Source: Gammaproteobacteria bacterium
GTDB lineage: Bacteria > Pseudomonadota > Gammaproteobacteria > Steroidobacterales > Rariloculaceae
Assembly: GCA_030834065.1 (NCBI GenBank)
Contig: JAURFX010000003.1
Coordinates: forward strand, 1-41,433
Length of the DNA stretch: 41,433 nucleotides
Reading direction: 5' to 3'
Below are positions 3,836 to 24,697 of the stretch, piece by piece (within the stretch, counting starts at the first letter, position 1; each line of letters begins with the position of its first letter). The notes beneath the pieces were generated by a model, which saw nothing but the letters and a program-made list of their open reading frames with translations, made no database searches and was not told the DNA's origin. Position numbers and translations under genes: made by a program.

Positions 3836-3843
3836 AGGATATT

Positions 3844-5550: not shown

Positions 5551-5552
5551 TT

Positions 5553-5828: not shown

Positions 5829-5832
5829 TTCT

Positions 5833-7326
5833 ATGGACATTTTTGATGCTGCCATAAGCTCTCTTACTCTTCTTTTAACCTATGATGTGATGCTCATGCT
5901 TTTCATAGGGGTTATCTACGGTCTTTGCGTCGGTTTAATGCCAGGACTTGGTGGCATTGTAGCAATTGCGCTCTTACTTCCCTTTACTATGGGCTTTGGT
6001 GTGATTCCAACTCTTGCGTTACTTTTAGGCGCTCATATAGCAACAATATGGGGAGGCTCCGTCACAAGCATACTTTTTAATGTTCCTGGGGCAGCTAAAA
6101 GCCTTGCATTAGTTTTTGATGGACACCCAATGACAAGAAACGGAGAAGCAAGTAGAGCTCTAGGAGCCTCTGCCATGGCAGCCTTATTGGGAGGGATTAT
6201 TGGTGCAATCTTTTTAGCATTAAGTATCCCGCTAGTTCGTCCTGTCATGCTTAGTATCGGACCAAGTGAATACCTTATTCTTGCACTTTGGGGTCTTAGC
6301 ATTATTGCAACTTTTAGTGATGGCTCAATGCTCAAAGGAGGAGTAGCAACCTGCCTTGGAATGATGGCGGCATTTGTGGGCATGGACCCGATCACCGGAA
6401 CCCCGAGATTCTGGATGGACTCGATTTATCTGTTGGATGGTATTTATTTTCCAGTAGCTATGATCGGTCTATTTGCAATCTCGGAAATGATAAAGCTTTA
6501 TGTAAAACAGACTTCTTTTGTCGAGAGAGTTGAGGGCCGAGAAACCAGTACCCTTCTATCAGGCTGTAAGGATGCTTTTAAGCATTGGTGGCTTGTCATT
6601 CGTTCAAGTTTGCTCGGACTATGGATTGGAGTCCTTCCTGGAATTGGCGCCAGTGTGGGAGGTATAGCTGCCTATGCACAAGCTGTCCAAACCTCAAAAA
6701 ATCCTGAAAAATTTGGTAAGGGCGCAGTTGAAGGAGTAATCGCTCCGGATGCTACTTTAGGCGCTAATGAAGGTGGTGGATTATTACCAACCCTTGCCTT
6801 TGGCATCCCTGGTGGAGAAAGTATGGCTATACTCCTGGTGGCATTTCTTAGTATGGGTATTGTGCCAGGCCCGCAAATGCTTACAACAGATTTAGATTTA
6901 GTATTTGCAATGGTTTGGATAATCGTTTTTGCCAATATATTTACTGCAATTATTGGGCTAGCAATTTCTCCTAAACTATCAAAACTTCCCAGATTAAACC
7001 CTAATATTATGATCCCCATCGTATTATCCGTATGTCTTTTTGGTGCTTACGTAACTCGAGGGTATTTTGCTGATATGGTATTAGCGTTTTTGTTTGGGAT
7101 TTTTGGCTATTACATGGATAAATATAAATTTTCCAGAGCAAACTTTGTCATTGGCATGGTGCTAGCTGAAATGATAGAGAGAAATTTACATATTTCCCTT
7201 GGGCTATACGGAGATTTTTTTATTTTTACTCAACCCGTCTCCATTATTTTGTTGGTACTTTTATTTATCACAACAGCGCTCTCACTAAAAAGAAAAAATA
7301 ATAGAAGTAAGGAAGTAAATGTTTAA
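5833..7326 (+). CDS. tctA: tripartite tricarboxylate transporter large permease TctA
   Basis: GLMPGLG, GGSVTSILFNVPG, DGHPM, GVLPGIGAS, EGVIAPDA..AN, PTLAFGIPG, GIVPGP; multi-TM. Confidence 0.92.
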   Translation: MDIFDAAISSLTLLLTYDVMLMLFIGVIYGLCVGLMPGLGGIVAIALLLPFTMGFGVIPTLALLLGAHIATIWGGSVTSILFNVPGAAKSLALVFDGHPMTRNGEASRALGASAMAALLGGIIGAIFLALSIPLVRPVMLSIGPSEYLILALWGLSIIATFSDGSMLKGGVATCLGMMAAFVGMDPITGTPRFWMDSIYLLDGIYFPVAMIGLFAISEMIKLYVKQTSFVERVEGRETSTLLSGCKDAFKHWWLVIRSSLLGLWIGVLPGIGASVGGIAAYAQAVQTSKNPEKFGKGAVEGVIAPDATLGANEGGGLLPTLAFGIPGGESMAILLVAFLSMGIVPGPQMLTTDLDLVFAMVWIIVFANIFTAIIGLAISPKLSKLPRLNPNIMIPIVLSVCLFGAYVTRGYFADMVLAFLFGIFGYYMDKYKFSRANFVIGMVLAEMIERNLHISLGLYGDFFIFTQPVSIILLVLLFITTALSLKRKNNRSKEVNV

Positions 7327-7741
7327 ATTAAACGGTGAAAATGTTTTTATCCTATTTTTAATTTTTCTCTCTGCGGGCTATTTCATTGGATCGCTATCCT
7401 TTGGTCCAAATGCTAGGCTTCTACCTCTCCCTATTTCTCTTTTTTCTTTGGCCCTATGTGTTCTGGCTATGTTCTTTAAAGAAGAATCTGAGGCTCAGAC
7501 AGAAACTTTATACAGGGAAATTAAAGCGATCTTGCTCATATTATTTTTTATTTTAATTATAGCATTTATCGGCCCATCCATTGGTTCAGGAATCTTTTGT
7601 ATGTTTTATATGCTAAGAAAGCAAAACTTAAACATATACAGATCTTTAGCAATTTCTTTAAGTGTAGCTTTATTCATTTATTATATTTTTTATCAATTCT
7701 TACAACTAACGCCCGACTCTAATTTTCAATTATTATTTTAA
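7319..7741 (+). CDS. tctB: tripartite tricarboxylate transporter small subunit TctB
   Basis: 140-aa protein with about 4-5 TM segments between tctA and tctC; ARLLP and C-terminal F...LQL.P pattern. Confidence 0.75.
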   Translation: MFKLNGENVFILFLIFLSAGYFIGSLSFGPNARLLPLPISLFSLALCVLAMFFKEESEAQTETLYREIKAILLILFFILIIAFIGPSIGSGIFCMFYMLRKQNLNIYRSLAISLSVALFIYYIFYQFLQLTPDSNFQLLF

Positions 7742-7743
7742 TA

Positions 7744-8727
7744 ATGCGCAAACTCTTTCTCAGTGCAATTTTTATATCTTCGAGCTTATTGGCACAAGAT
7801 AACCCAATAAATAGCAATGCATTAACGATTATTGTGCCCAATGCTGCAGGTGGCTTGATGGCAAGATATGCACGTATGATTGAGCCATATTTAGAAAAAT
7901 ATTTAGAAATGGAAGTTAATATTCGCATCATGACTGGAGGTGGCAACATAAGGGGAACAAATTTTGTATGGTTCGCTGAGCCTGATGGAGCTACTATCGG
8001 CTTTACCTCAATCCCTTCCTTGGTGTTAGCGCAATTTTCAAATAGTCCTGCAGTACAGTTTGATATTGAAGCGTTTAGCTTTCTTGGGAGAGTCTCTACG
8101 GAGCCAAGGGTGCTTACTACAGGAAAACAATCAAATATTCGAGATGCAAACAGTCTTTTAGCTATGGATAGAGAATTTATATATCCATCACAGGGCACTG
8201 ATGAGGATTTTTTTACGATGATTGTTCTTGCAGATGCATTGGACATAAAGCTCAAGCCAATCATGGGATATAACGGAAATCCTGATACTGCTATGGCTAT
8301 AATTAGAGGCGATGGTGATGGACAAATTACGTCTTGGCGAGCCTCGCTTGCCTCAATAAATAACGGAGATCAGATCCCTCTGCTAAATATTGGAAGTGAG
8401 CCCTATGAAGATTTTCCAAATGTCCCATCAGTTCTATCCTATGCTAGAGATGATTCAATAGAAGCAATGACCGCCATTGTTGAAATGCTTGATACTCATA
8501 GGGGTTTTTTTGGGCCCCCAGGCTTAAGCAATGAAACAGTTAATTATTTGCGTGAAAAAATATTTTTAGCACTAAATGATCCGGAATTAAAAGAGATCGC
8601 AAGGCAGAATGCACTCCCGCTTGTTCCCTCACACGGAGAACTGGAAGCTTTAAAAATCAATCAATTAGTCTCCTCTGAAAGCTTGATTATGCCAATACTT
8701 GAGTCTACTCTAGATACATTAAGGTGA
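7744..8727 (+). CDS. tctC: tripartite tricarboxylate transporter substrate-binding protein (TctC/Bug family)
   Basis: Signal peptide, TIIVPNAAGG...AR, GGGNIRG, AEPDGATI, Y.G, FPNVPS, RGFFGPPGL. Confidence 0.88.
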   Translation: MRKLFLSAIFISSSLLAQDNPINSNALTIIVPNAAGGLMARYARMIEPYLEKYLEMEVNIRIMTGGGNIRGTNFVWFAEPDGATIGFTSIPSLVLAQFSNSPAVQFDIEAFSFLGRVSTEPRVLTTGKQSNIRDANSLLAMDREFIYPSQGTDEDFFTMIVLADALDIKLKPIMGYNGNPDTAMAIIRGDGDGQITSWRASLASINNGDQIPLLNIGSEPYEDFPNVPSVLSYARDDSIEAMTAIVEMLDTHRGFFGPPGLSNETVNYLREKIFLALNDPELKEIARQNALPLVPSHGELEALKINQLVSSESLIMPILESTLDTLR

Positions 8728-10983: not shown

Positions 10984-11452
10984 TTATTGCATCACCTATT
11001 TACTTTTACTATTCTCAACCTCTCTTGCGGCTGAGAAATTAAATTACTTTATAGCCTATACCCAGGAGGAAAATGGCATTGTAATTGAAAATTGGGATGG
11101 TTATGAGCCAACGCTAGGATTAAATTTTTCTCAAATCATCGATTATTGCACCTCTAGTCATTCTAATCATTCAATACCTACTTTTGAGGCCTTTGATTTG
11201 TCTAATCTTCAGATCAATTGCTATGACCGTCATGGGAATGAAATCAATGAAGTACCATTAATTCTAAGTGTAGAGAGCCTGGCAGATATTTTTAACCTGA
11301 ATGGGACAGAGATTTATTTTACTGATAAAAACTATCCTTATATCAGATTATGGGCAGAGTGCATTTATGAAAGATCCGATGGATCAAGATTTACTTTTCC
11401 TATAATTTTACTTAATAATAAAGGCTTTATTTCAAAAATTATCCAACCATGA
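10970..11452 (+). CDS. hypothetical secreted protein
   Basis: 160-aa ORF with a Sec signal peptide (MKKLS...SLAA), overlapping both neighbours. No family recognised. Confidence 0.6.
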   Translation: MKKLSYCITYLLLLFSTSLAAEKLNYFIAYTQEENGIVIENWDGYEPTLGLNFSQIIDYCTSSHSNHSIPTFEAFDLSNLQINCYDRHGNEINEVPLILSVESLADIFNLNGTEIYFTDKNYPYIRLWAECIYERSDGSRFTFPIILLNNKGFISKIIQP

Positions 11453-12444
11453 TACCTGAGTCTGTGCTTGAGAGTTATGACCTTGGCCATTGTTCAATAA
11501 AGACAATCAATACAGGATTGATCAATAAAACCTGGAAATTATCTGCAGCGTCGGGTGATTTTATTTTTCAAAAGATAAATCCTATTTTTCCAGAACAAAT
11601 TCACGAATCGATTCATAAAATCACAAAGATACTTTTGCAAGACGACATTGGCTCTGTTGAAATAATAAGGACTAAAAATGGAGAACTGATCCATAAAGAA
11701 AATGATGAAATTTGGAGGGTTACGAAATATATCTCGGGTGATAATTTTGAGATTACCCCAGATGCTGATTATGCGTTTAGTCTTGGGAAGGGATTGGCTA
11801 AAATGCAAAAATGCCTTCGTAATGTAAAGGTTGGAGTTCCTTTAAGAACAATCAAAGAGACCGATAGGTGCTATGAAGATTTAATTTCTCTTATAAAATT
11901 AAGTCAAGATCACTCGCAAATTAAAACTATTCAAAAGTATGCTGAAGAAATAAGTAAAGAGTATGCGGCCCTTGATCAAAAGTTAGAAATTAATAATAGG
12001 CAAATGATCCATGGGGATCCCAAAATATCTAATGCTATATTTATAAACGGATCACCTGACATTAAAGCTTGGATAGATTTTGATACCATCGCTTTTCAAA
12101 ATCCCTATGACGAAGTTGGAGATGCTATTCGGTCTTGGTGTAATCCAGTTCATGAATCTGATACGGAGAGTCAGCTGGATCAAACATTACTTAAAGCTAC
12201 GCTTGAAGGCATTGTATATTTTGATATCTATAAAGAAATAAACAGTAAATCAGTTATTCAATTTTACACAAAAAAAATAACGCTTCGTTTGGCAATGCGT
12301 TTCTTAACAGATGCAATGACAGAGAATTACTTTTTTTGGGATAAAAGCAAATACAATACACTCTCGGAGCAAAATATTGCAAGAACGCGCGCGCAACTCA
12401 ATTTACTCAAATCAATTGAGTCTGCATTTATGACACTTCTGTGA
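11449..12444 (+). CDS. aminoglycoside phosphotransferase / N-acetylhexosamine-1-kinase-like phosphotransferase
   Basis: GLINKTW, FIFQKIN..F, Brenner motif HGDPKISN, WIDFDT, GDAIRSWCN, RFLTD...YF. Confidence 0.85.
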   Translation: MIPESVLESYDLGHCSIKTINTGLINKTWKLSAASGDFIFQKINPIFPEQIHESIHKITKILLQDDIGSVEIIRTKNGELIHKENDEIWRVTKYISGDNFEITPDADYAFSLGKGLAKMQKCLRNVKVGVPLRTIKETDRCYEDLISLIKLSQDHSQIKTIQKYAEEISKEYAALDQKLEINNRQMIHGDPKISNAIFINGSPDIKAWIDFDTIAFQNPYDEVGDAIRSWCNPVHESDTESQLDQTLLKATLEGIVYFDIYKEINSKSVIQFYTKKITLRLAMRFLTDAMTENYFFWDKSKYNTLSEQNIARTRAQLNLLKSIESAFMTLL

Positions 12445-12472
12445 CAGTAAAAAACTAAAATTCTTATATATT
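12431..12472 (+). promoter_or_regulatory. hemA promoter with TGACA-N6-TGACA direct repeat (HemR-box-like)
   Basis: TGACActtctgTGACA at 12431-12446 has an 11-bp period typical of OmpR/PhoB-family boxes. The second repeat reads GTGACA (-35-like), followed by a TATATA/TATATT -10-like element at 12465-12472. Confidence 0.75.
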
Positions 12473-12481
12473 CAGTGCTCT

Positions 12482-13795
12482 ATGATAAACAATTATCAAA
12501 TTGTTGGTATAACTTGGCGCGATCATCTTCAAGAGGAGATTGAAAAGATCTCATTAAACGAAGAACAGGCGCTTAAAGCCCTGCAGTTATTACAAAAAAA
12601 ATATCAAGTTGAAGAGTGTGCGTATCTTAAAACCTGTAACAGAATTGAGCTCTTTATCTATACAGAAGATTTATCTATACATAAAAACATTAGAAAGATT
12701 TGGCGCGAAATCATAGGTCAATTTCGAATAGCAAAATCTGAAAGCATTCAATTTAGATCGTGGAGAGGAGAAGGAGCGTTTGAGCATCTTTTTATGGTTT
12801 CCTCTGGTCTCGATTCTGCCTCTTTAGGAGAAAGTGAAATTTTATATCAGCTAAAGAAAACAAAAGAATTTGCTCAAAAAAATCACTTGATTGCATCAGA
12901 AATTAACTTCCTGTTTGAGGAGTCATTCAAAGTTGCTGCACAGATTAAGAGAAACACATTACTTAACTCGGGAAAGCAATCCTTATCTGAAATCGCAATA
13001 AATATTTTTATAAAACCAAATCTACCTGACAAAGATTTTAAAATAGGTCTGATTGGCACATCCCCTGTAATTATAAATGCACTCAAGTCACTTCTAGAAA
13101 GAGAATTTAAGCCTACTTTAATTAATAGAACGCTCAAAAATATACAAGATCTAAAAGATAAGTACCCTATTAAGATGATCAGCTTAAATGATCTAAATTC
13201 TGGCAATCATCATTTCGATGTAATCTTATCTGCCACAAGTGCAACAGAGAAAATTATCAATGAAAAATCACTAAAAGCCATATTTATCAATCAAACAAAA
13301 ATTTATATCGATTTAGCAAGCACTCCTGACGTCTCATCAGCTGTATGCAAAAGAAATAACATAAAATATTACTCCTTAGATGATGTGATTGAGAAGGCAA
13401 AATACACGCATCAAATACGTCAGGCAGAAGTAGCAAATGCAAGAGAAATTATTGATAGCTATTTGATTAATTTAAATCAAAAGATTAATGATAAGAAATA
13501 CAACTCAATTTATTCTGCAATACAAAAAAGATATCAATACACCGCCTCAGAGGGCATTAAAAGATTAATTAAAAAAAATGCATTAAAACTTGATCAAAAT
13601 GCTATAAATGAAATTGATATTTGGTGTTCAGCCCTTGCAAGAAGATTTGCTCACATTCCAACCTTAGGCATAAAAGGCTTACTGAATAATGGTCCAGACG
13701 GTTCTGTTGAGGCATTCATTGAGGGTCTTGATGAAAAGTTTCAAACTGAACTAAAGCTCGCAATACTAGAAACCAAAGGCGGCAATCTTGATTAA
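12482..13795 (+). CDS. hemA: glutamyl-tRNA reductase (divergent)
   Basis: TCNRIE catalytic Cys, AFEHLF.VSSGLDS..LGESEI..Q, NRT, SATSA, IDLA. First gene of the hem operon. Confidence 0.88.
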   Translation: MINNYQIVGITWRDHLQEEIEKISLNEEQALKALQLLQKKYQVEECAYLKTCNRIELFIYTEDLSIHKNIRKIWREIIGQFRIAKSESIQFRSWRGEGAFEHLFMVSSGLDSASLGESEILYQLKKTKEFAQKNHLIASEINFLFEESFKVAAQIKRNTLLNSGKQSLSEIAINIFIKPNLPDKDFKIGLIGTSPVIINALKSLLEREFKPTLINRTLKNIQDLKDKYPIKMISLNDLNSGNHHFDVILSATSATEKIINEKSLKAIFINQTKIYIDLASTPDVSSAVCKRNNIKYYSLDDVIEKAKYTHQIRQAEVANAREIIDSYLINLNQKINDKKYNSIYSAIQKRYQYTASEGIKRLIKKNALKLDQNAINEIDIWCSALARRFAHIPTLGIKGLLNNGPDGSVEAFIEGLDEKFQTELKLAILETKGGNLD

Positions 13796-14684
13796 GATAG
13801 GAACCAGAGCCTCGCATTTAGCAAGAACTCAAGCACTTTTAGTTGAGAAAAAACTAAATGATCTTGGTATAGAAACTAAAATAGTCATCATCACAACAGA
13901 AGGTGATAAGAATTTAAATAAGAACTTTTCTGAAATAGGTTCTCAGGGAATATTTGTCAAAGAACTAGAACAGTCATTATTAAAACAAGATATTCATATT
14001 GCTGTACATTCAGCCAAAGACCTTCCAATCCAGATAGATAAAAAATTACAAATTGGCGCCTACCTTAAAAGAGAAGATCCTGCAGATATACTACTTAGCT
14101 ATCATGAGATAAATGAAAATGTATTAAAAAGTAAAAAATTAACTATTGGTACTTCATCAATTCGAAGATCTAAATGGATTAGCCATTTTTATCCTCATAT
14201 CATTGTTGAAGGTCTAAGAGGCAATGTACCCACAAGAATAAAAGCATTAGAAAATATTGATGTAATTATATTAGCTAAAGCAGGCTTGAACCGCTTAGAT
14301 AAGTCTCCTCTGTCTGATAAGCCGAATATCGATTTTAATAAATTTCATATGCATCGACTTGATCCTAATCAATTTGTATCTGCACCTGGTCAAGGTGCCA
14401 TAGCTATTGAATGCTTAAAAGCAAGCAAAGATATACTTGATTCCCTCGATAGAATTAACCATAAAGAAACCCAGACTTGTATCGATCATGAAAGGATAAT
14501 GTTAGGTCACTTAAGTGGTGGTTGCAATGTTCCGCTTGGAGTTTATGTCAAAATGATCAATCAAAATAATTCTTTCGAGATGCATATTGCACATGCATTA
14601 AATAACAAATTTATTAAGAAAACGTTTCAATACAATAAGATAAATCAAGTTGAAGAAAAAATATTACAAGAATTAAAATCATGA
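13788..14684 (+). CDS. hemC: hydroxymethylbilane synthase (porphobilinogen deaminase)
   Basis: IKIGTRAS.LA..Q, T.GD, GIFVKELE, AVHSAKDLP, GTSS.RR, LRGNV.TR, APGQGA, GGCNVPLG. TTG start. Confidence 0.95.
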   Translation: MIKIGTRASHLARTQALLVEKKLNDLGIETKIVIITTEGDKNLNKNFSEIGSQGIFVKELEQSLLKQDIHIAVHSAKDLPIQIDKKLQIGAYLKREDPADILLSYHEINENVLKSKKLTIGTSSIRRSKWISHFYPHIIVEGLRGNVPTRIKALENIDVIILAKAGLNRLDKSPLSDKPNIDFNKFHMHRLDPNQFVSAPGQGAIAIECLKASKDILDSLDRINHKETQTCIDHERIMLGHLSGGCNVPLGVYVKMINQNNSFEMHIAHALNNKFIKKTFQYNKINQVEEKILQELKS

Positions 14685-15403
14685 ACATCAGAGGTAAAAA
14701 AATTCTTATCACCAGAGATAACGAAGGAAATAAAGATTGGCAAGAGAAATTGCGCTCTCTGGGCGCCTTAGTAAAGACTTTGGACTGTATTAGTATTCAT
14801 GAATTTGATATGAATAAAGAGGAGTTAGCTGAGATAAGAAGAATAATCGAAGCTTCACAATATGTGATTTGGACTTCTGCGAGAGGCGTTTTGTATTCAA
14901 GAAAATTTTTTAATGGACAGATCGCTTCGAAGCTCTGTGCCGTAGGTATTCCTACCGCTAAGGAGATAAAAAAATACTTTGGTAATCCTTATTTGATTAG
15001 CCAAGAGATGAATGCAAGAGGACTCAGTCAAATTATTATTAAAAATGAAGACCTTAAAAATAAAAAAATCTTATTACTCTTGGCCATAAATGCCTCAGAT
15101 TTTCTAGAAAAGGAGCTTCAAAATGCAGGCGCCAATGTAAAACGAATTAATATTTATGAAACCAGACCGATAATGCTTAATGATCCAATTTTATTAAGCT
15201 CACTAGATGTTAATCATATTTTTGTTGCTAGCCCAAGTGCAGCGAAGGGCCTAAAAAATAATGTAATTTTCGACTGTTCAGTCAACGTTTACCCTATTGG
15301 AATAACTACAAAAAAAACTTTAGATGAGTATCAAATTAAAACTCAGCCTATACCAAAATACACAGGTCTCGAAGGTCTAATAAATCAATTAAATAATAAT
15401 TAA
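14681..15403 (+). CDS. hemD: uroporphyrinogen-III synthase
   Basis: GKKILITR, WTSARGV, AVG..TA, YET, ASPSA, IG.TT; directly after hemC. Confidence 0.88.
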   Translation: MNIRGKKILITRDNEGNKDWQEKLRSLGALVKTLDCISIHEFDMNKEELAEIRRIIEASQYVIWTSARGVLYSRKFFNGQIASKLCAVGIPTAKEIKKYFGNPYLISQEMNARGLSQIIIKNEDLKNKKILLLLAINASDFLEKELQNAGANVKRINIYETRPIMLNDPILLSSLDVNHIFVASPSAAKGLKNNVIFDCSVNVYPIGITTKKTLDEYQIKTQPIPKYTGLEGLINQLNNN

Positions 15404-15405
15404 CT

Positions 15406-16374
15406 ATGGGTAGAGAATATAGAATCAATCAGGAAATCAGGGATAGCTTAGCTGAAACTTCATTATCGCGCTCAGACCTTATCATGCCCTACTTTGTAAA
15501 TGACTCAAGTCATTCTATACAGATTTCTGCAATGCCTGGAATATTAAATCATTCAATTGCTTCTCTAATTCCAGCTGTTCAAGAGCAGTTAAAATTTGGT
15601 ATCGATTCCATACTTCTCTTCGGAAGTACAGAAAATCAAAAAAATAAAACTAATGACGGTAGCTATGCTTATCACGAAAAAGGCATTACACAGGCAGCGG
15701 TACGCGCTTTAAAAAAAGAATTTGGGAATGACCTTACTATTATCACCGATGTGTGTATATGCTCATACACAAATCATGGTCATTGTGGTGTCACTCAGGG
15801 AGAAAATATTCTTAACGATGAGACCCTTCCTATCCTTGCAAAAATTGCAAAAAGTCACGCAGATGCTGGAGCAGATATCATTTCCCCGTCAGATATGATG
15901 GATAGCAGAGTGCAATTTATCTCAGATTATTTAAAAGAAGAGATTAATCAAAAGATTCCATTATTTAGTTATGCCGCAAAATTTGCCTCTTCTTACTATG
16001 GGCCCTTTAGAGAGGCAGCAGATTCATCGCCGAAATTTGGTGATAGAAAGAGCTATCAAATGGATTACAGAAATTCTAATGAGGCCATGAGCGAGATCAA
16101 GGAAGACCTCGATCAAGGTGCTGATGGAATTATTTTTAAACCTGCTTTAGCTTATTTGGATATCTTAGCTAGGGCAAGCAAAAAATTTGATACTAGAAAG
16201 TTGGCTTATAATGTCTCTGGTGAGTATTCAATGGTAAAGGCAGCGGGCATGAAGGGATGGATTAATGAGAAAGAAATTATTATAGAAAATCTTTTTTGCA
16301 TGAAGAGAGCAGGCGCGACTGACATTATTACTTATCATGCATTAGAAGTTGCAAAAAATAATTGGATCGAATAG
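15406..16374 (+). CDS. hemB: porphobilinogen synthase (ALA dehydratase), Zn-type
   Basis: DVCICSYTNHGHCG Cys triad, SPSDMMD, KFASSYYGPFREAA, GDRKSYQMD, FKPAL.YLD, AYNVSGEY. Confidence 0.97.
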   Translation: MGREYRINQEIRDSLAETSLSRSDLIMPYFVNDSSHSIQISAMPGILNHSIASLIPAVQEQLKFGIDSILLFGSTENQKNKTNDGSYAYHEKGITQAAVRALKKEFGNDLTIITDVCICSYTNHGHCGVTQGENILNDETLPILAKIAKSHADAGADIISPSDMMDSRVQFISDYLKEEINQKIPLFSYAAKFASSYYGPFREAADSSPKFGDRKSYQMDYRNSNEAMSEIKEDLDQGADGIIFKPALAYLDILARASKKFDTRKLAYNVSGEYSMVKAAGMKGWINEKEIIIENLFCMKRAGATDIITYHALEVAKNNWIE

Positions 16375-16376
16375 CA

Positions 16377-17666
16377 ATGCAGATAGAAAAATCTAAAAAA
16401 TTATATGAGCAAGCGTGTAAAGTTATTCCTGCAGGTGTCAGCTCACCGGTAAGGGCCTTCAAAGCTGTGGGTGGCAATCCAATCTACATGAGGTCTGGTC
16501 AGGGTCCCTTTATTAATGATGTGGATGGAAATCAATACCTTGACTTTGTTATGTCATGGGGCCCACTTATACATGGTCATGCCAATCAAAAAATTATTCA
16601 AAAAATAATTGAAGCCGCTCATAATGGGACTTCTTTTGGCACACCTTGTGAGGATGAATTAAACCTTGCAAGGTTTATTGTTGATTCATATAAATCCATA
16701 GATCAAGTACGTTTTGTCTCATCGGGGACAGAAGCAGTCATGAGCGCGATAAGACTGGCTAGAGGTTTCACAGGTCGAGATCTTATTATTAAGTTTGATG
16801 GTTGTTATCATGGACATGTCGATCCCTTGTTGGTTTCTGCCGGTTCTGGCTTGGTTACGCTAGGGAATCCTTCATCTCTGGGAATTCCACACGAAGTTTC
16901 TAAGCAAACTATCTCTCTTCCGCTAAATCGTATTGAACAAGTTAAGAGAGCATTTATTGATTTTAAAGGTCAAATTGCAGCTGTAATCATTGAGCCAATT
17001 CCTGCTAATAACGGCTTATTGCTTCAAACAAAAGAATTTATCTCAGGTCTTAGGGAATTATGTGATGAAAATCATGCATTGTTAATATTTGATGAAGTTA
17101 TCAGCGGCTTTAGGGTCGCTCAGGGAGGGTCCCCAGAGATATTTAACATCAATCCTGATCTTGTAACATTTGGCAAAGTAATTGGAGGAGGGCTGCCCGC
17201 CGGCGCATTTGGCGCTAATAGAGAGATAATGAATCACATTGCACCAAATGGAGGAGTTTACCAAGCAGGGACTTTATCTGGAAATCCATTAGCAATGGCT
17301 GCTGGCTTTGCAAGTCTAAAACTCCTTCAGGATGAAAATAGTTGGGAATATCTTGAAAACTTGGGTTCTTATCTAGAGAAAAAAGTTAAACTCCTGGGCT
17401 TTAATGAAAAATTTAATGTTAGTTTTGTCCGACAAGGTTCCATTTTTTGGTTTGCACTTGATACAAATATACCACCGATTAGATCAGAGGATATTAATGC
17501 TAAATCAGAGAAAAAATACGCTTCGATATTTAATGGCTTACTAAAAAATAAAATATATATCGCTCCCAGTATGTATGAAGTTGGATTTCTATCCACATCA
17601 CACAATAAAGAACATGTAGATCACTTTATTCAATCTTTATATCACTCAATGGAATGTATAAGTTAA
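16377..17666 (+). CDS. hemL: glutamate-1-semialdehyde 2,1-aminomutase
   Basis: PAGVSSPVRAF, SWGPLIHGH, SGTEAVMSAIRLARG, FDGCYHGH, FDEVISGFR, FGKVIGGGLP, YQAGTLSGNP. ATG at 16377 is preferred over TTG at 16362. Confidence 0.97.
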   Translation: MQIEKSKKLYEQACKVIPAGVSSPVRAFKAVGGNPIYMRSGQGPFINDVDGNQYLDFVMSWGPLIHGHANQKIIQKIIEAAHNGTSFGTPCEDELNLARFIVDSYKSIDQVRFVSSGTEAVMSAIRLARGFTGRDLIIKFDGCYHGHVDPLLVSAGSGLVTLGNPSSLGIPHEVSKQTISLPLNRIEQVKRAFIDFKGQIAAVIIEPIPANNGLLLQTKEFISGLRELCDENHALLIFDEVISGFRVAQGGSPEIFNINPDLVTFGKVIGGGLPAGAFGANREIMNHIAPNGGVYQAGTLSGNPLAMAAGFASLKLLQDENSWEYLENLGSYLEKKVKLLGFNEKFNVSFVRQGSIFWFALDTNIPPIRSEDINAKSEKKYASIFNGLLKNKIYIAPSMYEVGFLSTSHNKEHVDHFIQSLYHSMECIS

Positions 17667-18733
17667 GCCAGAGAAATACCTTTAGACTGGAAATTACTTT
17701 TGTAGTTCTTCTGGTGCTTACTTTTGGTCAAGTAATTTGGTGGATTTATGACCAGATACAGTACACAGAGAACATCAATAGTAGCTTACTAAGACAATAC
17801 GAAATTGAAGCAGAACTTCTTGAGAGTCAAAATTCCTCGGACCCTTTAAATATTCGAGACTTCCCTTACCTAACCGAGATCAACGGTGAGATTATGATTA
17901 GTGCAGATGCGCTCGCTAATATCGAGGCCGAGAGAAGCTCAAGAATAAACCGTTATTTTTGGGAAGGAAGTTTCTTTATTGTGGTTATATCGCTATGTAT
18001 TTTAATCATATTCAAAACCATCAGTAAGGATCGAGCTTTGAATCGAAGGCAGCAAAACTTTATTGCCTCTATAAGTCATGAATTAAAAACCCCACTCACC
18101 AGTATGCGTCTTGCCGCCGAGACGATTGGAATAAATAATCAGGATGAGAGATCAATCAGAATGGTAAATCGTATCCTCTCCGAGGGTGATAGATTACTTC
18201 ATTTGATCGAGAATCTACTTGATGCTAATAAGCTTGATGAAAAGAAATTCCAAGTTCAAGTCTCTCAATTTGCTATAAATGGCCTTATTGAAAAAGTTTT
18301 AAATGGTCTTTTTCTTAGAGCTGAAGAATGTGGAATTGAAATTCAAACAATGATTAATACTGATAAGACAATTAATAATGATCCTTTAATTGTGTCCATT
18401 ATCTTGAGAAATATTATTGAAAATGCTGTAAAAGCCTGCGAACAGAGCAATCAAAAGCTTATCAGAGTAGTCGCAAATAGGACTGATGACGGAATTGCAG
18501 TAGAAGTGATAGATTCTGGTATTGGTATCCAAAAGGAAGAAAAAGAAAATATCTTTGATAAGTTTTACCGAGTGGGAGATGAAAAATTACGTACAACTTC
18601 AGGTAGCGGACTTGGTCTCTATATTTGCAGAAAATTAGCAAAACTAACAAATATCTCCATAGAAGTTAGTAGTGAGGGTATGAATCAAGGATCTACCTTT
18701 AAAGTTTCAATAAGGGATATTTCTAATGTCTAA
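17654..18733 (+). CDS. membrane sensor histidine kinase (HisKA), HemK(Leptospira HemKR)-like by position
   Basis: Two TM segments flank a short extracytoplasmic region; H-box SHELKTPL, N-box NIIENAVK, D.GIGI, IFDKFYR, GSGLGL. Confidence 0.92.
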   Translation: MYKLSQRNTFRLEITFVVLLVLTFGQVIWWIYDQIQYTENINSSLLRQYEIEAELLESQNSSDPLNIRDFPYLTEINGEIMISADALANIEAERSSRINRYFWEGSFFIVVISLCILIIFKTISKDRALNRRQQNFIASISHELKTPLTSMRLAAETIGINNQDERSIRMVNRILSEGDRLLHLIENLLDANKLDEKKFQVQVSQFAINGLIEKVLNGLFLRAEECGIEIQTMINTDKTINNDPLIVSIILRNIIENAVKACEQSNQKLIRVVANRTDDGIAVEVIDSGIGIQKEEKENIFDKFYRVGDEKLRTTSGSGLGLYICRKLAKLTNISIEVSSEGMNQGSTFKVSIRDISNV

Positions 18734-19439
18734 TATCTTGGTAGTAGATGATGAAAAGGTCTTGGGCGAAAGTATTAAAGATGCTTTAGCCTCAGAGGGA
18801 TATGAAGTCAAGATCGCATCGAATGGACAAATTGGTTTTGACTTGATCTCTTCTGAGCCTTTTGATCTCATCATATTAGATGTCATGATGCCAGAAATAA
18901 ATGGGATTGATCTTTGCAAGAAAGTCAGAGAAATAAATGTACTTACTCCAATTTTATTTTTGACGGTCAATAATGACCCTGAAGATAGAATATTGGGACT
19001 TGAAGCTGGGGGTGACGATTACCTTGGTAAGCCATTTCACTTAAAAGAATTATTACTTAGAACCAGAAAACTAATTCAAAGAACCCAGTGGTATGCTAGA
19101 ACCAACGATAGTTTTGCATTTGAAGACATTTATATTGATTTTTCAAGTTACCAAATTGAATCTTGGGATAAAAAAATATATAACCTGACCCAGAAGGAAG
19201 CCATGATCCTAAAACTTCTTATTGAAAATGAGGGGGCAACGGTATCTCGCGAAGATATCCTAGAGAAAATTTGGGGTTATGAATCTTATCCCTCTACTCG
19301 AACAATAGATAACTTTATCGTTCGCTTAAGAAAAAGAATCGAACGTAATCCAGAGCAACCTACTCATCTTCATACTATAAGAGGCGTTGGTTATAAATTT
19401 ACTAAAAATCCATTAGAGAATAATGATCCTGAACTATGA
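18726..19439 (+). CDS. OmpR/PhoB-family response regulator, HemR-like by position
   Basis: ILVVDDE, LDVMMPEING, GGDDYLGKPF, wHTH LTQKE...TRTIDNFIVRLRK.IE...TIRGVGY. Confidence 0.93.
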   Translation: MSNILVVDDEKVLGESIKDALASEGYEVKIASNGQIGFDLISSEPFDLIILDVMMPEINGIDLCKKVREINVLTPILFLTVNNDPEDRILGLEAGGDDYLGKPFHLKELLLRTRKLIQRTQWYARTNDSFAFEDIYIDFSSYQIESWDKKIYNLTQKEAMILKLLIENEGATVSREDILEKIWGYESYPSTRTIDNFIVRLRKRIERNPEQPTHLHTIRGVGYKFTKNPLENNDPEL

Positions 19440-20449
19440 ATAATAAAAGACTTTTAAATGCCCTTAACCTCAAAGAAAATGATCATAGACCTATTTGGAT
19501 TATGCGACAAGCGGGTAGATACCTACCTGAATACAGGAAGGTAAGGGAAAAGTATAGCTTTAGAGAGGTCTCAGAAACACCCGAACTTGCAGCAGAGGTT
19601 ACTCTTCAGCCACTCAAAAGATTTGAATTCGATGCCTCTATCATATTTGCAGATATCATTACTCCACTTAAGGCTATGAATATAAATTTTGATTTTAGTC
19701 CTGGCCCTATCATTGAAAATCCAATCAATAACCCAAGACAAATTGATGCCCTACCTGATAAATTTTATGAAGTTGCCCCAGAGGTGCAGGCATCTTTAAA
19801 ATTAGTTAAATCTGAATTAAAGTCCCACCAAACACTTATTGGTTTTGGTGGTGCACCCTGGACCTTAGCTGCCTACCTTATCCAAGGAAAAGGACAAAAA
19901 GACTTTCCCGCAATAAGGCGCTTTGCGTCTGAACACCCTGAGTCTCTTCAGAGCCTTTTAACTAAACTCAGCGATCTAAGTATCCAGTACTTTAAAGAAC
20001 AAATTGATTCTGGAGCAGAGGTTATTCAAATTTTTGACTCTTGGGCTGGTTTGCTTTCTATCAAGGATTGGCAAACATGGATACAACCCCATTTACTTCA
20101 TATTGTTAGCGCTCTTAAGGCATCTAATATCCCAGTAATTCTATTTCTACAAAATGCAAATCATTTGGTTGAGTATTACTGCGAACTTCCAATCAGTGGA
20201 ATCGGTGTCGATTGGAGAGTTGATTTATCAAAACTGCAATCAAAATTAAAAGATCATATAGCTGTTCAGGGCAACTTAGACCCAGCTATTCTGCTTGCAG
20301 GACCAGAAATTACAAAAAAGTATGCTATAAATTTACTTAACAGTATCGATCCTAAGGGGCATATCATGAATTTAGGTCATGGTATTTTACCTAACACTCC
20401 CATCGAGAGTGTTCATGCACTAATTGAAGTAATTAAAAATGAGAGATAA
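19436..20449 (+). CDS. hemE: uroporphyrinogen decarboxylase
   Basis: PIWIMRQAGRYLPEY, IIFADI, GFGGAPWTLA.Y, QIFDSW, VQGNLDP, NLGHGI.P. Confidence 0.97.
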   Translation: MNNKRLLNALNLKENDHRPIWIMRQAGRYLPEYRKVREKYSFREVSETPELAAEVTLQPLKRFEFDASIIFADIITPLKAMNINFDFSPGPIIENPINNPRQIDALPDKFYEVAPEVQASLKLVKSELKSHQTLIGFGGAPWTLAAYLIQGKGQKDFPAIRRFASEHPESLQSLLTKLSDLSIQYFKEQIDSGAEVIQIFDSWAGLLSIKDWQTWIQPHLLHIVSALKASNIPVILFLQNANHLVEYYCELPISGIGVDWRVDLSKLQSKLKDHIAVQGNLDPAILLAGPEITKKYAINLLNSIDPKGHIMNLGHGILPNTPIESVHALIEVIKNER

Positions 20450-20452
20450 GAC

Positions 20453-21166
20453 ATGAAAATTTCAGAAACTACAGGACAAGTTGATCTAAGTGAAAAAGGT
20501 CTCAATCAAGGCCAATTGATCTCTCTTGACCGAAGATTATTTATGAAATTTAATGCCTTCTCAGGGCGAATTGACGAAAAAGAAATTATTAAAAAATGTA
20601 GTGAAATTAATGGTGTTATTTATAGAGACATTAATGATCCAAATGGTATCGGTCTTCTTATTCTTAGCGAAGACCCTGCCGAATTTATCAAGATCAATCA
20701 AGAAGTCTTATCTTTGCCACCATTCTCTGATCTTCAGCATAAGCATGAATTTGATATGCTTGGTAGGACTTACTCGATTGGATATGAAAATGATCTCGAG
20801 GAAGTTCTTATAAATAAACCCAAAAATAAAATAAAGGATCCAAATTTTAAATGGTGTGTATGGTACCCACTAAGACGTGAAAAAAAGTTTTATGTACTTC
20901 CAGCTGACAAGCAAAAAAAGATCCTTGGTGAGCATGGCAATCTTGCTAAGCGCTATGGCTATGCTGGTCTTGCCGTGGATATCCGTCTAGCCTGTCATGG
21001 TCTTGATAAACAAGATAATGATTTTGTAATTGGGCTGCTTGGGCCTGATCTCCATCCCTTATCTGCAGTCGTTCAAGAGATGCGACAAACGGAGCAAACA
21101 GCTCACTACCTAGAAAGTTTAGGTCCCTTTTTTATTGGCTTAAAAATTTGGGAGAATATCTCATAA
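20453..21166 (+). CDS. chdC: chlorite dismutase-family protein, probable coproheme decarboxylase (ChdC/HemQ)
   Basis: WYPLRR (YPxxK/R catalytic-Tyr motif), ILGEHG proximal His, GLD..D.DFVI, VQEMR, GPFFIG. Located between hemE and the ferrochelatase. Confidence 0.75.
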   Translation: MKISETTGQVDLSEKGLNQGQLISLDRRLFMKFNAFSGRIDEKEIIKKCSEINGVIYRDINDPNGIGLLILSEDPAEFIKINQEVLSLPPFSDLQHKHEFDMLGRTYSIGYENDLEEVLINKPKNKIKDPNFKWCVWYPLRREKKFYVLPADKQKKILGEHGNLAKRYGYAGLAVDIRLACHGLDKQDNDFVIGLLGPDLHPLSAVVQEMRQTEQTAHYLESLGPFFIGLKIWENIS

Positions 21167-22200
21167 TGCATGAGTATGATTCTCTCTTGATTCTCTCTTT
21201 TGGTGGGCCCGAGGGTAAAGAAGATGTCTTGCCATTTCTAAGAAATGTACTTAAAGGTATTCCCGTCAAAGATGAAACCTATGAAGAAATTCAAGAGCGT
21301 TATGATCTATTTGATGGAGTATCACCTATCAATGCCAATACTAGGCTATTCATCGATACCTTATCAAAAGCCCTCAAATTAAAAAGAATCATGCTCCCCA
21401 TATACTGGGGTAATCGAAATTGGCATCCAATGCTCAGTGATACGATGCAAAAAATGAAAGAGGATGGAAGAAAAAAAACACTTGTATTTGTTACAAGTAT
21501 TTTTAGTTCTTATAGCGGATGCAGAAAATACCGCGAGGATCTCTATGAATCAAGCGCAACCATTGAGCATTCGATAGAGTTCGATAAAATCAGAAATGGG
21601 TATAATCATCCTGGCTTTATTAAGGGAATAGCAAGTTGCATTAATGAAACAATCAAAAATAACAATCTGAGCAAAGAAACCCAAGTATTTTTTACCGCAC
21701 ATAGTTTGCCAATCTCAATGGCAGAAAAAACAGAATACAAAAATCAACTCCTTGATAGCTGTCAATTGGTCGCAAATGAACTTGAGTTAAAAAATTGGAA
21801 GCTATGCTACCAGAGTAACAACGCATCTTATGGAAATAAATGGTTAGAGCCAACGATTGAAGATGAAATAGTAGCTATGGGCCAAGCACCTACAAAAGAT
21901 TGCATTGTAATGCCTATCGGATTTGTATGTGATCATATGGAAGTTGTACTTGATCTTGATATTGATGCAAAAAATATTGCTTTGCAGAATGATGTAAACC
22001 TTTACAGGGCGCCAACACTTGGTATTAACGAAAACTTTATTGATATGGTGGTAGATCTTATTGACGAAAGAATGCAAAAAAGAGAAGAAAAAAAGTTTCT
22101 AGGCGAAAGAGGCCCTAATCACAATCAATGTCCAATAAACTGCTGCCTCTCAGGTAGGCCAGGAAATCCAAAGCCTTCACTATGTGGTGAAGCTAGCTAA
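21166..22200 (+). CDS. hemH: ferrochelatase, actinobacterial-type (probable coproporphyrin ferrochelatase CpfC) with C-terminal Cys cluster
   Basis: YD.LL.LSFGGPEG..DV.PFL.NV, GVSPIN, PIYWGNRNWHP, SSYSGCR.YRED, FTAHSLP, YQS, WLEP, PIGFVCDHMEV..DLD, C-terminal CPINCC. TAATG overlap with the upstream stop; GGAG RBS. Confidence 0.93.
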   Translation: MHEYDSLLILSFGGPEGKEDVLPFLRNVLKGIPVKDETYEEIQERYDLFDGVSPINANTRLFIDTLSKALKLKRIMLPIYWGNRNWHPMLSDTMQKMKEDGRKKTLVFVTSIFSSYSGCRKYREDLYESSATIEHSIEFDKIRNGYNHPGFIKGIASCINETIKNNNLSKETQVFFTAHSLPISMAEKTEYKNQLLDSCQLVANELELKNWKLCYQSNNASYGNKWLEPTIEDEIVAMGQAPTKDCIVMPIGFVCDHMEVVLDLDIDAKNIALQNDVNLYRAPTLGINENFIDMVVDLIDERMQKREEKKFLGERGPNHNQCPINCCLSGRPGNPKPSLCGEAS

Positions 22201-22202
22201 AA

Positions 22203-23555
22203 ATGCCTGAAGTATTTGATGTGATTATCATTGGTGCAGGTTTAAGCGGTCTCACCACAACAAAATATCTAAAAGATGCAAATATAAGTACGTTAACACT
22301 TGAGGCATCTGATGTCCCAGGCGGTCGACTAAGATCTATTGAAAATAAAGATAATTCTTTTGAATTTGGAGGTACTTATATCGGACATCATTATCATCGC
22401 TTTCAAAATTTAGCCAAAGAACTCAATTTAACTACTATCGATGTCACTCCATTGATTAGCTTTTTTAAAAAACAAGATCTAGTCATAAATAAACAATTAA
22501 TTCATCAAGATGACTGGGAGAATCATAAGGAAAATACCTTGGATAAAGATCTAAAATCTATCTTGCCCTGGAATCTACATCGCATAATTTTAGAAAAATA
22601 TAACCCTTATAATTCACCTGAAGCATGTCTTACTGAAGGAACTAATGATCAATCGATGAGAGATTGGCTTCAAAGTCTAGGCTTTGATAGCCAACAAATA
22701 AAATATATTTATGGCATGAATTTAAGTTATGGGACTGATGCCGATTCAATTTCCTCGCTGCAATTAATGCATCGAGCGAGTTTTTCTAAAAGACAAAAAT
22801 CAGAGTCTAAAGTTATAGGTTTCACCTTGCTTGAAGGTATGAATGAGCTAGCCAATCGGTATATCAATCATTTTAATTTAAATATATTATTCAAAAATCG
22901 AGTCAATAAGATCGTTAAAGAAAAAGGTCTTTTTTCAGTATCCTGTGAAAATGGAAATGAGTTTAGTGCAGAAAGACTTGTCCTTACTTGTGCCCCATCT
23001 ACACTTAAAAATATAACATTTGATGATTATTCAAAAGAACAAAGGATTCAGTTTGCCTCAGAATTGCAATCCCAACCCATGTTCCAAATTCATTTTAAGC
23101 ATAAAAAGAATTTCTGGGAGCAAGACGGATTCTCTCCCGCTATATTCTCTAATGAATACCTTGGGATGTGCTATCCAGTTAGAAATAAAGTTGATCCCGA
23201 GGAGATCATTGGTTTTACTGCATGGGTTATGGGAAAAAAGGCATTAGATCTTATCAAGCTCTCTCAAAAAGATGCTTGCTCAGTTATCATAAATAATCTA
23301 CAGGAGATAAGACCAAGCATAAAAAATGCAATTGAATTAACTCATCTTAATGCCTGGTCCCATGAAAAAGATTTTTTAGGAGGGTGGACGTATTTCAAGC
23401 CAAACCAGTTCTTAATGTGGCATAAGCTTTTACAGTCAGAGAAAAGTAATATCTTCTTTTCAGGAGAGCATACTTCTATTAGCTCGAGGGGAATTGAGGG
23501 CGCTATTGAGTCTGGAGAGAAGACTGCTAGAGAACTTTTAAATTCTATTCATTAA
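22203..23555 (+). CDS. flavin monoamine oxidase family FAD-dependent oxidoreductase
   Basis: DVIIIGAGLSGL, LEA.D..GGR, EFGGTYI, IFFSGEHT...GIEGAIESG (MAO/LAAO-type C-terminus). Confidence 0.85.
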   Translation: MPEVFDVIIIGAGLSGLTTTKYLKDANISTLTLEASDVPGGRLRSIENKDNSFEFGGTYIGHHYHRFQNLAKELNLTTIDVTPLISFFKKQDLVINKQLIHQDDWENHKENTLDKDLKSILPWNLHRIILEKYNPYNSPEACLTEGTNDQSMRDWLQSLGFDSQQIKYIYGMNLSYGTDADSISSLQLMHRASFSKRQKSESKVIGFTLLEGMNELANRYINHFNLNILFKNRVNKIVKEKGLFSVSCENGNEFSAERLVLTCAPSTLKNITFDDYSKEQRIQFASELQSQPMFQIHFKHKKNFWEQDGFSPAIFSNEYLGMCYPVRNKVDPEEIIGFTAWVMGKKALDLIKLSQKDACSVIINNLQEIRPSIKNAIELTHLNAWSHEKDFLGGWTYFKPNQFLMWHKLLQSEKSNIFFSGEHTSISSRGIEGAIESGEKTARELLNSIH

Positions 23556-24537
23556 AAAGATATCTCTCCGGTATCGGAAGGTCTTTAATCATATTTAAAT
23601 ATTCGTCTCGATAGTCTAAATCGAATATTTTAGCAATTTCATCTTTTTTTAAGTGCGTAGATAATAAACTAATGAAATCTATAAGGTATGCTCTTGTAAT
23701 TATTGACTGAGGAACACCAATCCAGGTTGTGAGCTCTGGAAATAGTTTTCTAATATCTAACACATAAAGATCATTTAAATCATTTGGCTCTATAGCCATT
23801 GAGGCAACAATGCCAACGCCCATGCCCTTTCTAACATAAGTCTTTATTATGTCGGCATCTCTGGCAGTAAAGGCAATCCTTGGGGTTAATCCCTGGCTCT
23901 CAAAAGCTTGCAAAAAGGATGATTGTCCCTGAACGCTAAAAATATAAGTGACTAATGAATGCTTTGATAAAATTTCTAGGTTAATGTTTCTTTTGTCCTT
24001 AGCTAGGGGGTGGCTTTTGGGGACAATAGCTACTCGACTCCACCTATAGATAGGAATTTGAAGAAGTTCATTGTTAAATGCATTAAGTCCACTCGCAATA
24101 ACACAATTGACTCTTTTTTCTCTGACTAACTCATCAATTTGCTCAGAGGTTCCTTGGTGAAGCTCAAGATCAATCAATGGGAATTTATCTGAAAACTGTC
24201 TAATTATATCGGGAAGGACATATCTTGCCTGAGTGTGAGTTGTGCCAATTGATAAAACTCCCCTCTGTTCGCCTTTTGATTCCAAAGCAAAATTTTCAAT
24301 TTCATAAATATCATTTAAGACCCTCTTTGCTCGCTCGTATACTTCTTGTCCAGCATCAGTCAAGGAGGTCAAGCTTTTACCCTTTTTTAAAAATAACTTT
24401 ATCCCAAGTTCTGATTCTAAAAGTTTCAATTGCTTACTTATTCCTGGCTGACTCGTGAAGAGTAATTCTGAAGCTGCGGTTATATTTAGGCCACAGTCAA
24501 CCGTTTGAATAAAATATCGAAGTTGCTTTAACGTCAT
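23545..24537 (-). CDS. cysB: LysR-type regulator CysB/Cbl
   Basis: MTLKQLRY...LNITAASE.LFTSQPGISKQ..LLE.ELG, TTHTQARYVLP, LHQG, FTARDADIIKTYV..G.GVGI.ASMA. Confidence 0.92.
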   Translation of the reverse strand: MTLKQLRYFIQTVDCGLNITAASELLFTSQPGISKQLKLLESELGIKLFLKKGKSLTSLTDAGQEVYERAKRVLNDIYEIENFALESKGEQRGVLSIGTTHTQARYVLPDIIRQFSDKFPLIDLELHQGTSEQIDELVREKRVNCVIASGLNAFNNELLQIPIYRWSRVAIVPKSHPLAKDKRNINLEILSKHSLVTYIFSVQGQSSFLQAFESQGLTPRIAFTARDADIIKTYVRKGMGVGIVASMAIEPNDLNDLYVLDIRKLFPELTTWIGVPQSIITRAYLIDFISLLSTHLKKDEIAKIFDLDYRDEYLNMIKDLPIPERYLFNE

Positions 24538-24605: not shown

Positions 24606-24697
24606 TGGCGGAGAGAGAGGGATTCGAACCCTCGAAGGACGTATATGCCCTTACTCCCTTAGCAGGGGAGCGCTTTCGACCACTCAGCCATCTCTCC
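24606..24697 (-). tRNA. tRNA-Ser (anticodon GCT)
   Basis: Reverse complement GGAGAGATGGCTGAGTGGTCGAAAGCG-CTCCC-CTGCTAA-GGGAG-long variable arm-GAGGGTTCGAATCCCTC-TCTCTCCGCCA; encoded CCA; classic position after csrA. Confidence 0.97.

Follow-up and report, generated by a model that had tools for sequence, protein, structure and literature searches.

A heme operon of the gammaproteobacterial family Rariloculaceae with a predicted coproporphyrin-dependent late branch and a candidate oxidase of the monoamine oxidase fold

The stretch of DNA analysed here (the window) comprises positions 1 to 41,433 of contig JAURFX010000003.1, which belongs to the assembly GCA_030834065.1 (here G000; 1.17 Mb in 104 contigs, GC 0.384, 82.6 % complete) of a member of the Rariloculaceae, a gammaproteobacterial family in the order Steroidobacterales. 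Between positions 12482 and 23555, 11 open reading frames (ORFs) on the same strand were assigned by profile and Pfam searches to nine enzymes or candidate enzymes of heme synthesis and two regulators. On balance, we favour the view that this operon encodes a coproporphyrin route under a HemKR-type circuit, in which HemY has been displaced by a third, independent oxidase, an amine oxidase minus its twin-arginine translocation (Tat) signal.

All 11 genes are on the forward strand. The first five are hemA (12482–13795), a divergent glutamyl-tRNA reductase that has the three Pfam GlutR domains and scores 196 bits with TIGR01035, below the cut-off of 209.55; hemC (13788–14684; hydroxymethylbilane synthase, TIGR00212 above cut-off); hemD (14681–15403; uroporphyrinogen-III synthase, PF02602); hemB (15406–16374; porphobilinogen synthase, NF006762 above cut-off); and hemL (16377–17666, with an ORF finder start at 16362; glutamate-1-semialdehyde aminomutase, TIGR00713 above cut-off). 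They are followed by genes for a HemK-like sensor histidine kinase (17654–18733; HisKA and HATPase domains) and a HemR-like response regulator of the OmpR/PhoB type with a conserved C-terminal DNA-binding region (18726–19439), and by hemE (19436–20449; uroporphyrinogen decarboxylase, TIGR01464 above cut-off). The last three genes encode a divergent ChdC (HemQ)-like coproheme decarboxylase (20453–21166; PF06778), a CpfC-type ferrochelatase assigned by PDB profile match (21166–22200) and a flavoprotein of the monoamine oxidase (MAO) fold that has no export signal (22203–23555; PF01593). The description of 11 co-oriented genes joined by overlaps or gaps of no more than 3 nt, given in an earlier note on this DNA, fits all ten junctions: the overlaps are 8 nt (hemA/hemC), 4 nt (hemC/hemD), 13 nt (hemL/kinase), 8 nt (kinase/regulator), 4 nt (regulator/hemE) and 1 nt (chdC/ferrochelatase), and the gaps are 2 nt (hemD/hemB, hemB/hemL and ferrochelatase/flavoprotein) and 3 nt (hemE/chdC), assuming that hemL starts at the ATG at 16377 and the ferrochelatase at the ATG at 21166. 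A predicted HemR-type operator, the hem-box TGACA-N6-TGACA (12431–12446, forward strand), lies 51 nt before the hemA ATG. Neither a sigma-70 promoter nor a terminator was detected between 12300 and 12600. Contigs from the RNA runs X15 and X16 cover the operon in part, which does not demonstrate transcription.

Our best reading is that the late branch is coproporphyrin-dependent, the type of the ferrochelatase being judged by similarity and its substrate predicted from that type. In PDB profile searches, the best match of the ferrochelatase was 28wn, 'Coproporphyrin III ferrochelatase' (E value 8e-94), and the E values were 1e-44 to 1e-48 against CpfCs of Bacillota versus 1e-38 to 1e-40 against the human enzyme. 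Residues C119, C322, C326, C327, H178 and E259 are invariant, and the four Cys, which include the CX3CC tail, were present in all 17 sequences compared. The CX(3)CC groupings of ferrochelatases are discussed in a part of PMC8529089, and passages of PMC7340540 and PMC10427985 describe a C-terminal [2Fe-2S] cluster in actinobacterial CpfCs. The family enzyme is like these [2Fe-2S] ferrochelatases in its four conserved Cys, and a cluster in it is putative. A 33-row tree places it with actinobacterial and acidobacterial enzymes (Shimodaira-Hasegawa-like approximate likelihood ratio test (SH-aLRT) 99) and as sister to those of two Acidobacteriota genomes (SH-aLRT 93).

For the PF06778 protein, nine of ten PDB matches are named ChdC/HemQ or lmo2113. 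In an alignment with 6xub, the ChdC of Corynebacterium diphtheriae, its invariant Y138 and H161 match the YPFVR and EHG motifs; we take these residues to correspond to the Tyr of the Y-P-x-x-R/K motif and the proximal His of ChdC, and a Y135A variant is named in PDB entry 7q4g. Context also supports the assignment, because homologs sharing 52–54 % identity sit in hem operons of Caldilineaceae (Chloroflexota) with the order hemA-C-B-chdC-hemE-hemH-hemY-hemL, which include a true HemY. With its HemE, CpfC-branch ferrochelatase and ChdC-like protein, the operon resembles the coproporphyrin pathway of Bacillota and Actinomycetota (UroD, CgoX/HemY, CpfC and ChdC), as does the family in having HemF in none of 24 genomes and HemN above the cut-off in only two of the 24. 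The early gene order hemA-C-D-B-L is like that of Bacillus subtilis (hemAXCDBL, in a title cited in PMC10991733). The gammaproteobacterial host, the single operon, the divergent ChdC subfamily and the near absence of HemY and CgoN (see below) differ from that pathway. Passages of three papers describe the coproporphyrin route as almost confined to Gram-positive bacteria (PMC10991733, PMC10427985, PMC7242693), and reviews, as represented by a part of PMC10991733, regard Gram-negatives as protoporphyrin-dependent, with ChdC common among diderms only in Planctomycetota and Acidobacteria.

The last gene is not hemY; its product is the MAO-fold flavoprotein. The nearest matches of this protein, in sequence as in fold, are monoamine and nicotine oxidases, and no match to TIGR00562 (HemY) at an E value of 1e-8 was found in G000. 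It resembles TIGR00562 only at the dinucleotide-binding start, and an hhalign comparison with a Chloroflexota HemY gave an E value of 1.6e-9 over 280 columns only. A structural model (predicted local distance difference test score 89.3) aligned to the B. subtilis CgoX 3i6d with Z 27.6 and root-mean-square deviation (rmsd) 4.2 over 393 residues. The protein is like CgoX/HemY in its flavin adenine dinucleotide (FAD) cofactor, fold superfamily, proposed reaction and gene slot, and unlike it in lacking a full-length TIGR00562 match and in forming a separate clade. It is unrelated to CgoN (YtpQ, DUF1444).

In a 90-row quick tree, the flavoproteins of the family form one clade (SH-aLRT 100), nested among proteins of the Tat type and far from ten HemYs. 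Among the best 150 matches from a search of 1.84 billion representatives, the signal-less form was found only in the family's own clusters and the next matches were longer Tat-type proteins; 131 of the 139 full-length relatives have an N-terminal extension, which the family proteins do not have, and 121 have a loosely defined twin-arginine pattern. The Tat-type relatives that carry names are from Gammaproteobacteria, Steroidobacteraceae and Rhodospirillaceae, and Tat-type paralogs are present in G013, a family member, and in G980, a complete genome of f105 (another family of the order), where the flavoprotein family is represented by five paralogs. The ESM Atlas returned only generic monoamine-oxidase clusters. 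Compared with the flavin monoamine oxidases, NicA2 and L-amino-acid oxidases of PF01593, the family protein shares the fold, the C-terminal FAD motif and a nested tree position, but it lacks the signal, is single copy in a heme operon and has its own invariant residues (T58, Y59, F87, F88, W123, R127, R191, R327, W395 and R429). These are variable in 140 Tat-type relatives, none of which has Y59. Gln295 and Gly430 align with positions that we take to be K296 and Y435 of MAO-B. The flavoprotein seems, from these sequence relationships, to have been recruited from Tat-type oxidases carried by the order. In the flavoprotein of G013 (region 15200–15300 of locus L023) and of other genomes of the same genus, g13, about 30 residues rich in Pro and Ala are inserted after position 198.

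We consider it probable that the flavoprotein is a non-orthologous coproporphyrinogen III oxidase, because it occupies the slot of HemY, the known alternatives are absent and it was lost together with chdC and cpfC in one genome. HemY (TIGR00562) is above the cut-off in only two of 85 family genomes, and CgoN (PF07285; equated with DUF1444 in a passage of PMC10965808) was found in none of the five family genomes tested. The order hemE-hemH-hemY occurs in five of 20 Acidobacteriota loci, including the two with the closest ferrochelatases, and the slot after the ferrochelatase gene, held there by hemY, is held by the flavoprotein gene in the family. The co-loss was seen in G017 (95 % complete), the sole high-quality exception, in which chdC, cpfC and most of the flavoprotein gene have been deleted; the operon there runs from hemE through a flavoprotein relic of 59–63 codons (58–61 % identity to G004 and G014) to cysH-cysB, and a separate hemH-hemN-hemY cassette lies elsewhere in the genome. 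Both heme tail sets are carried by G008. The cassettes of G017 (L077, 1357–5206) and G008 (L078, 10763–14800), which are from two genera, are 55–65 % identical and represent either a second import or a relic tail.

As judged from family assignment, HemA, HemL, HemB, HemC, HemD and HemE would convert glutamyl-tRNA to coproporphyrinogen III, which the flavoprotein, an exported-type amine oxidase minus its Tat signal in place of HemY/CgoX, would oxidize to coproporphyrin III. The ferrochelatase would then insert iron into coproporphyrin III, and the ChdC-like protein would complete heme b by peroxide-driven decarboxylation, perhaps with H2O2 from the flavoprotein step.

The regulator pair is best described as HemKR-like, and the hem-box as its predicted operator. 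The hemACDBL...ENYH operon of Leptospira interrogans has a kinase-regulator pair between hemL and hemE, and a comparable linkage in Bdellovibrio is noted in the same source (passages of PMC2266917). According to a part of PMC11426443, phosphorylated HemR binds TGACA[N6]TGACA and 5-aminolevulinic acid (ALA) turns the system off. The family operon shares with that of Leptospira the position of the pair, the upstream gene order and the exact box before hemA; its tail is chdC-cpfC-flavoprotein, unlike the hemN-hemY-hemH of Leptospira. The likeness is one of gene order and hem-box. By analogy, the pair would control hemA through the box in response to ALA or a porphyrin, as in Leptospira. The box is exact in 17 of 18 family regions upstream of hemA, has one mismatch in the 18th, and was seen in two further loci. 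The evidence for it rests on this conserved position, because the box is not rare in G000, where two were found genome-wide against 1.7 expected; the second exact copy is at position 1082 of contig C19. In G018, four further exact boxes lie within 48 kb (contig C1, 858897–906574), with none in a reversed control, a possible wider HemR regulon. In loci L031 and L033 (genus g5), an inverted-repeat element separates the box, at −139 and −149, from hemA.

Of the family genomes, 67 of 70 have an ortholog of the kinase, as do 16 of 69 from f105; the 261 genomes from elsewhere in the order gave none. Thirteen f105 loci contain a sister operon, hemA-L-kinase-regulator-C-D-B-E, with a one-mismatch hem-box at −50 to −53 in 12 of them; it ends in hemE, and HemF is encoded next in some genomes (two confirmed). 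In the four f105 genomes tested, the only HemA is that of the sister operon, and ChdC and a flavoprotein ortholog are both lacking. Two f105 loci, L273 (8489–19901, G980) and L274 (G862), have the exact hem-box directly before a kinase-regulator pair, and no hem genes; the pair of G980 faces genes for a nitrogenase-component-1-type protein and a rubrerythrin-domain protein, read as bchN and acsF. A metagenome contig (L157, 2847–11772) has the order hemA-hemC(D)-hemB-hemL-kinase-regulator-orf-hemE-hemJ; its early order matches that of the family, and its tail is of the protoporphyrin type.

Of the 85 family genomes, 81 have the chdC-like gene and 79 the flavoprotein gene; among the 48 high-quality ones, each gene is present in 47. 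Two genomes that have chdC but no flavoprotein gene (G011 and G016) are explained by contig breaks, and the flavoprotein is retained in the 1.2-Mb genomes G000, G001 and G022. All 11 genes are in identical order in 17 of 24 family loci, and in one more with an extra hit; the other six end at contig or fetch limits, with their remaining genes in order. Outside the family, no member of the PF06778 subfamily was found in 16 families of the same order or in 400 genomes of Pseudomonadota. An APH-family phosphotransferase gene is upstream in 16 of the 24 loci, several of the others being cut by contig ends, and cysB is downstream in 15, often with an intervening gene for phosphoadenosine phosphosulfate reductase. 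No APH-family gene was seen before the sister operon of f105. The best reading is that the operon was installed in the common ancestor of the family between the APH-family gene and cysH-cysB and has been vertically inherited since. The identities of the hem genes correlate with that of CysB (rho 0.75–0.92; 0.14–0.73 without the low-GC genomes), which is weak support for vertical descent. In G090 (L279, 5255–14652), about 9 kb of unrelated ORFs lie between chdC and the ferrochelatase gene and the operon is broken.

The operon is, in our best reading, the only heme b pathway of the family. No second copy of any hem gene was found in G000, and the search of the rest of that assembly for native genes that the earlier note had called for gave no further candidate for HemF, HemN, HemJ, HemY or another ferrochelatase type; six ORFs with a radical-SAM motif look housekeeping-like by eye. 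HemF, absent from the 24 family genomes, was found in 14 of the 16 further families searched in the order (12 strong matches). The family genomes gave no HemA match better than an E value of 1e-64, versus 1e-91 to 1e-135 for 12 of the 16 other families, and in a quick tree the family HemA forms a long-stemmed clade separate from the native HemA of the order (SH-aLRT 99). Branching with vertically inherited gammaproteobacterial orthologs, which the earlier note had named as the pattern that would speak against its proposal, is rejected by the approximately unbiased (AU) test for HemL (p=9e-6) and weakly for HemE (p=0.038), each with four native sequences. Replacement of the whole pathway by a xenologous one with its own regulator, as proposed, is borne out by the missing second copies, the missing HemF and the lack of a native-type HemA; its variant, addition to a native pathway, is not, as the native genes are gone. 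A heme-auxotrophic stage before the gain of the operon is possible, because four of 16 other genomes of the order have no HemA match and the complete genome G980 has none for HemA, HemE or HemL, and the family may have regained prototrophy through the operon.

Several observations weigh against the coproporphyrin reading and against the role proposed for the flavoprotein. The PDB matches of the PF06778 protein are weak (E values 3.5e-7 to 1e-3) and confined to its C-terminal half, and it scores 42 bits against a cut-off of 235 with NF042928 (HemQ_actino), an actinobacterial-only model. The flavoprotein model fits the monoamine oxidase 8p84 better than CgoX, with Z 33.0 and rmsd 3.8 over 425 aligned residues. 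HemG-like flavodoxins occur in two of the five genomes tested, though not in G000, G012 or G013, and weak HemJ-like matches in three of 24; the CgoN and HemG counts cover five genomes only. G000 is incomplete, and G073, G074 and G087, which are incomplete and also lack HemE, are uninformative. The trees were built by quick searches and cover few outside phyla. Coproporphyrinogen self-oxidizes in air (a passage of PMC10965808), and the co-loss in G017 is a single event in which one deletion may have taken a bystander. In an unlikely alternative, the route is still coproporphyrin-dependent, but the flavoprotein would produce H2O2 for ChdC by oxidizing an amino acid or a small amine, or would have another helper role, and air or an unrecognized enzyme would oxidize coproporphyrinogen. 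All top PDB matches, both by sequence and by fold, are amine, nicotine or amino-acid oxidases, ChdC requires peroxide (a part of PMC7242693), and a helper of ChdC would likewise vanish with it in G017, so that the same pattern is expected. Against it, the flavoprotein sits in the slot that hemY holds in the nearest outside cassettes, and 83 of 85 genomes would be left without a known oxidase by the HemY model. Gln295 and Gly430 at the presumed K296 and Y435 positions of MAO-B also argue against this alternative, although their equivalents are common in Tat-type relatives. Much less probable is a hybrid route, in which the flavoprotein oxidizes protoporphyrinogen or the ferrochelatase uses protoporphyrin, and the PF06778 protein binds heme for some other purpose. 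HemY-fold enzymes accept both porphyrinogens (a passage of PMC13564367), the weak ChdC match would fit, and the AU test does not reject a grouping of the family ferrochelatase with the second ferrochelatase of G008 (p=0.26, with one long outgroup). However, the rarity of HemF and HemN leaves such a route with no known source of protoporphyrinogen, the ferrochelatase is in the CpfC branch, and the PF06778 protein has the Tyr and His that align with C. diphtheriae ChdC.

As to origin, an ancient replacement by a coproporphyrin-type pathway, probably a mosaic one, is very likely. The early module of the operon would be of the HemKR type, its chdC-cpfC tail Acidobacteriota-like and its oxidase recruited locally. 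Such a mosaic is likelier than the arrival of one block from one distant phylum, as the earlier note had it, because the early genes, the ferrochelatase and the flavoprotein point to different sources, with few phyla sampled. In the HemL tree, the early genes of the family go with the f105 sister operon, the family HemA has no close outside relative in a quick tree, and the HemE of those Acidobacteriota whose ferrochelatases are closest branches apart from the family HemE. No single donor was found in searches of outside relatives, plasmids and metagenomes: a profile search with the ferrochelatase gave at least 120 matches, those named being Gammaproteobacteria or Ca. Rariloculus, plasmid searches gave distant matches only, a metagenome scan with the regulator gave at least five hem-linked loci (one of them a family member) among 40 mapped of at least 80, and one scan of genome contigs gave five loci. 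That all 11 genes nevertheless came together from one unsampled donor, with the flavoprotein already recruited, is a minority possibility that concerns the origin only. The identical order in all full-length family loci would suit it, as would the hemA-C-D-B-L-kinase-regulator-hemE order in L. interrogans (as partly described in the source above) and L157, and genomes were sampled from only two outside phyla; the confinement of the signal-less flavoprotein to the family and the position of the acidobacterial HemE tell against it. A recent island in G000, or a chimeric contig, has next to no chance of being correct and was ruled out by family-wide synteny, the operon and flanks being the same in the congeneric genome G001 and in single-contig genomes. 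The AT-richness of hemA to hemD pointed out in the earlier note, which would favour an island, is real: their GC contents (hemA 0.327, hemC 0.314, hemD 0.333) are at the 6th, 2nd and 8th percentile of 947 G000 ORFs, and the GC content at third codon positions (GC3) of the block is 0.280 versus 0.322 for the genome (p=0.003). However, it is not a signature of transfer and does not date one, because block GC3 follows that of the host's cysB, from 0.20 to 0.90, across 13 family loci; the codon usage of the block fits the G000 genome better than average (p=0.011). The junctions near 12.4 kb and 23.55 kb, for which spanning reads had been asked, are bridged at flat depth by contigs of two public DNA runs, X1 (12301–15365 and 21833–23994) and X4 (11487–12534 and 22597–24018), either of which may be the source sample of the assembly.

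In the window, the upstream neighbour is the APH-family phosphotransferase gene (11449–12444, forward strand; PF01636), which is probably host flank and has the operator at its 3′ end. Downstream, cysB (23545–24537, reverse strand; NF009326 best) is convergent and overlaps the last operon gene by 11 nt. The gammaproteobacterial-type flanks listed in the earlier note were recovered by profile searches (cysB, alaS, recX, recA, rluD and bamD) or by eye (csrA). csrA and cysB are separated by a tRNA-Ser(GCT) gene (24606–24697, reverse strand) that is some 1 kb away from the block, not at its junction. Further away, a Gfo/Idh/MocA-type oxidoreductase is encoded in two overlapping ORFs of 127 and 263 aa (2009–3131, reverse strand), with an A-run near 2790 that suggests a frameshift or an assembly slip. 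An unassigned catabolic module (3140–8727, forward strand) comprises genes for a GntR regulator, an AprA/SdhA-like flavoprotein (568 aa) and a ferredoxin, and three genes that by eye resemble a tripartite tricarboxylate transporter; it is divergent from a creatininase-like/cupin/dehydrogenase cluster.

In a literature search outside subscription journals that covered the family name, and ChdC together with Gammaproteobacteria or with an amine oxidase, we came across no paper on the operon; earlier surveys may list sporadic proteobacterial ChdC. A 2026 review states, in a passage of PMC13564367, that the reported enzymes of the protoporphyrin-dependent (PPD), alternative heme biosynthesis (AHB) and coproporphyrin-dependent (CPD) routes cover all known heme-synthesizing organisms. 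Against that statement there is a gap: 83 of 85 family genomes are without HemY, yet 81 of the 85 keep ChdC, and there is one obvious candidate enzyme. If the proposed role is correct, a third coproporphyrinogen oxidase would be added to those known, the flavoprotein would clearly exemplify how an enzyme is recruited into a pathway by losing its export signal, and Gammaproteobacteria would join the hosts of the coproporphyrin route. Marker sets built on HemF, HemN, HemJ and HemY, or curated cut-offs that the HemA and ChdC of this operon miss, would miscall the family as lacking the pathway, and genome-based calls of heme auxotrophy would be affected for this reason.

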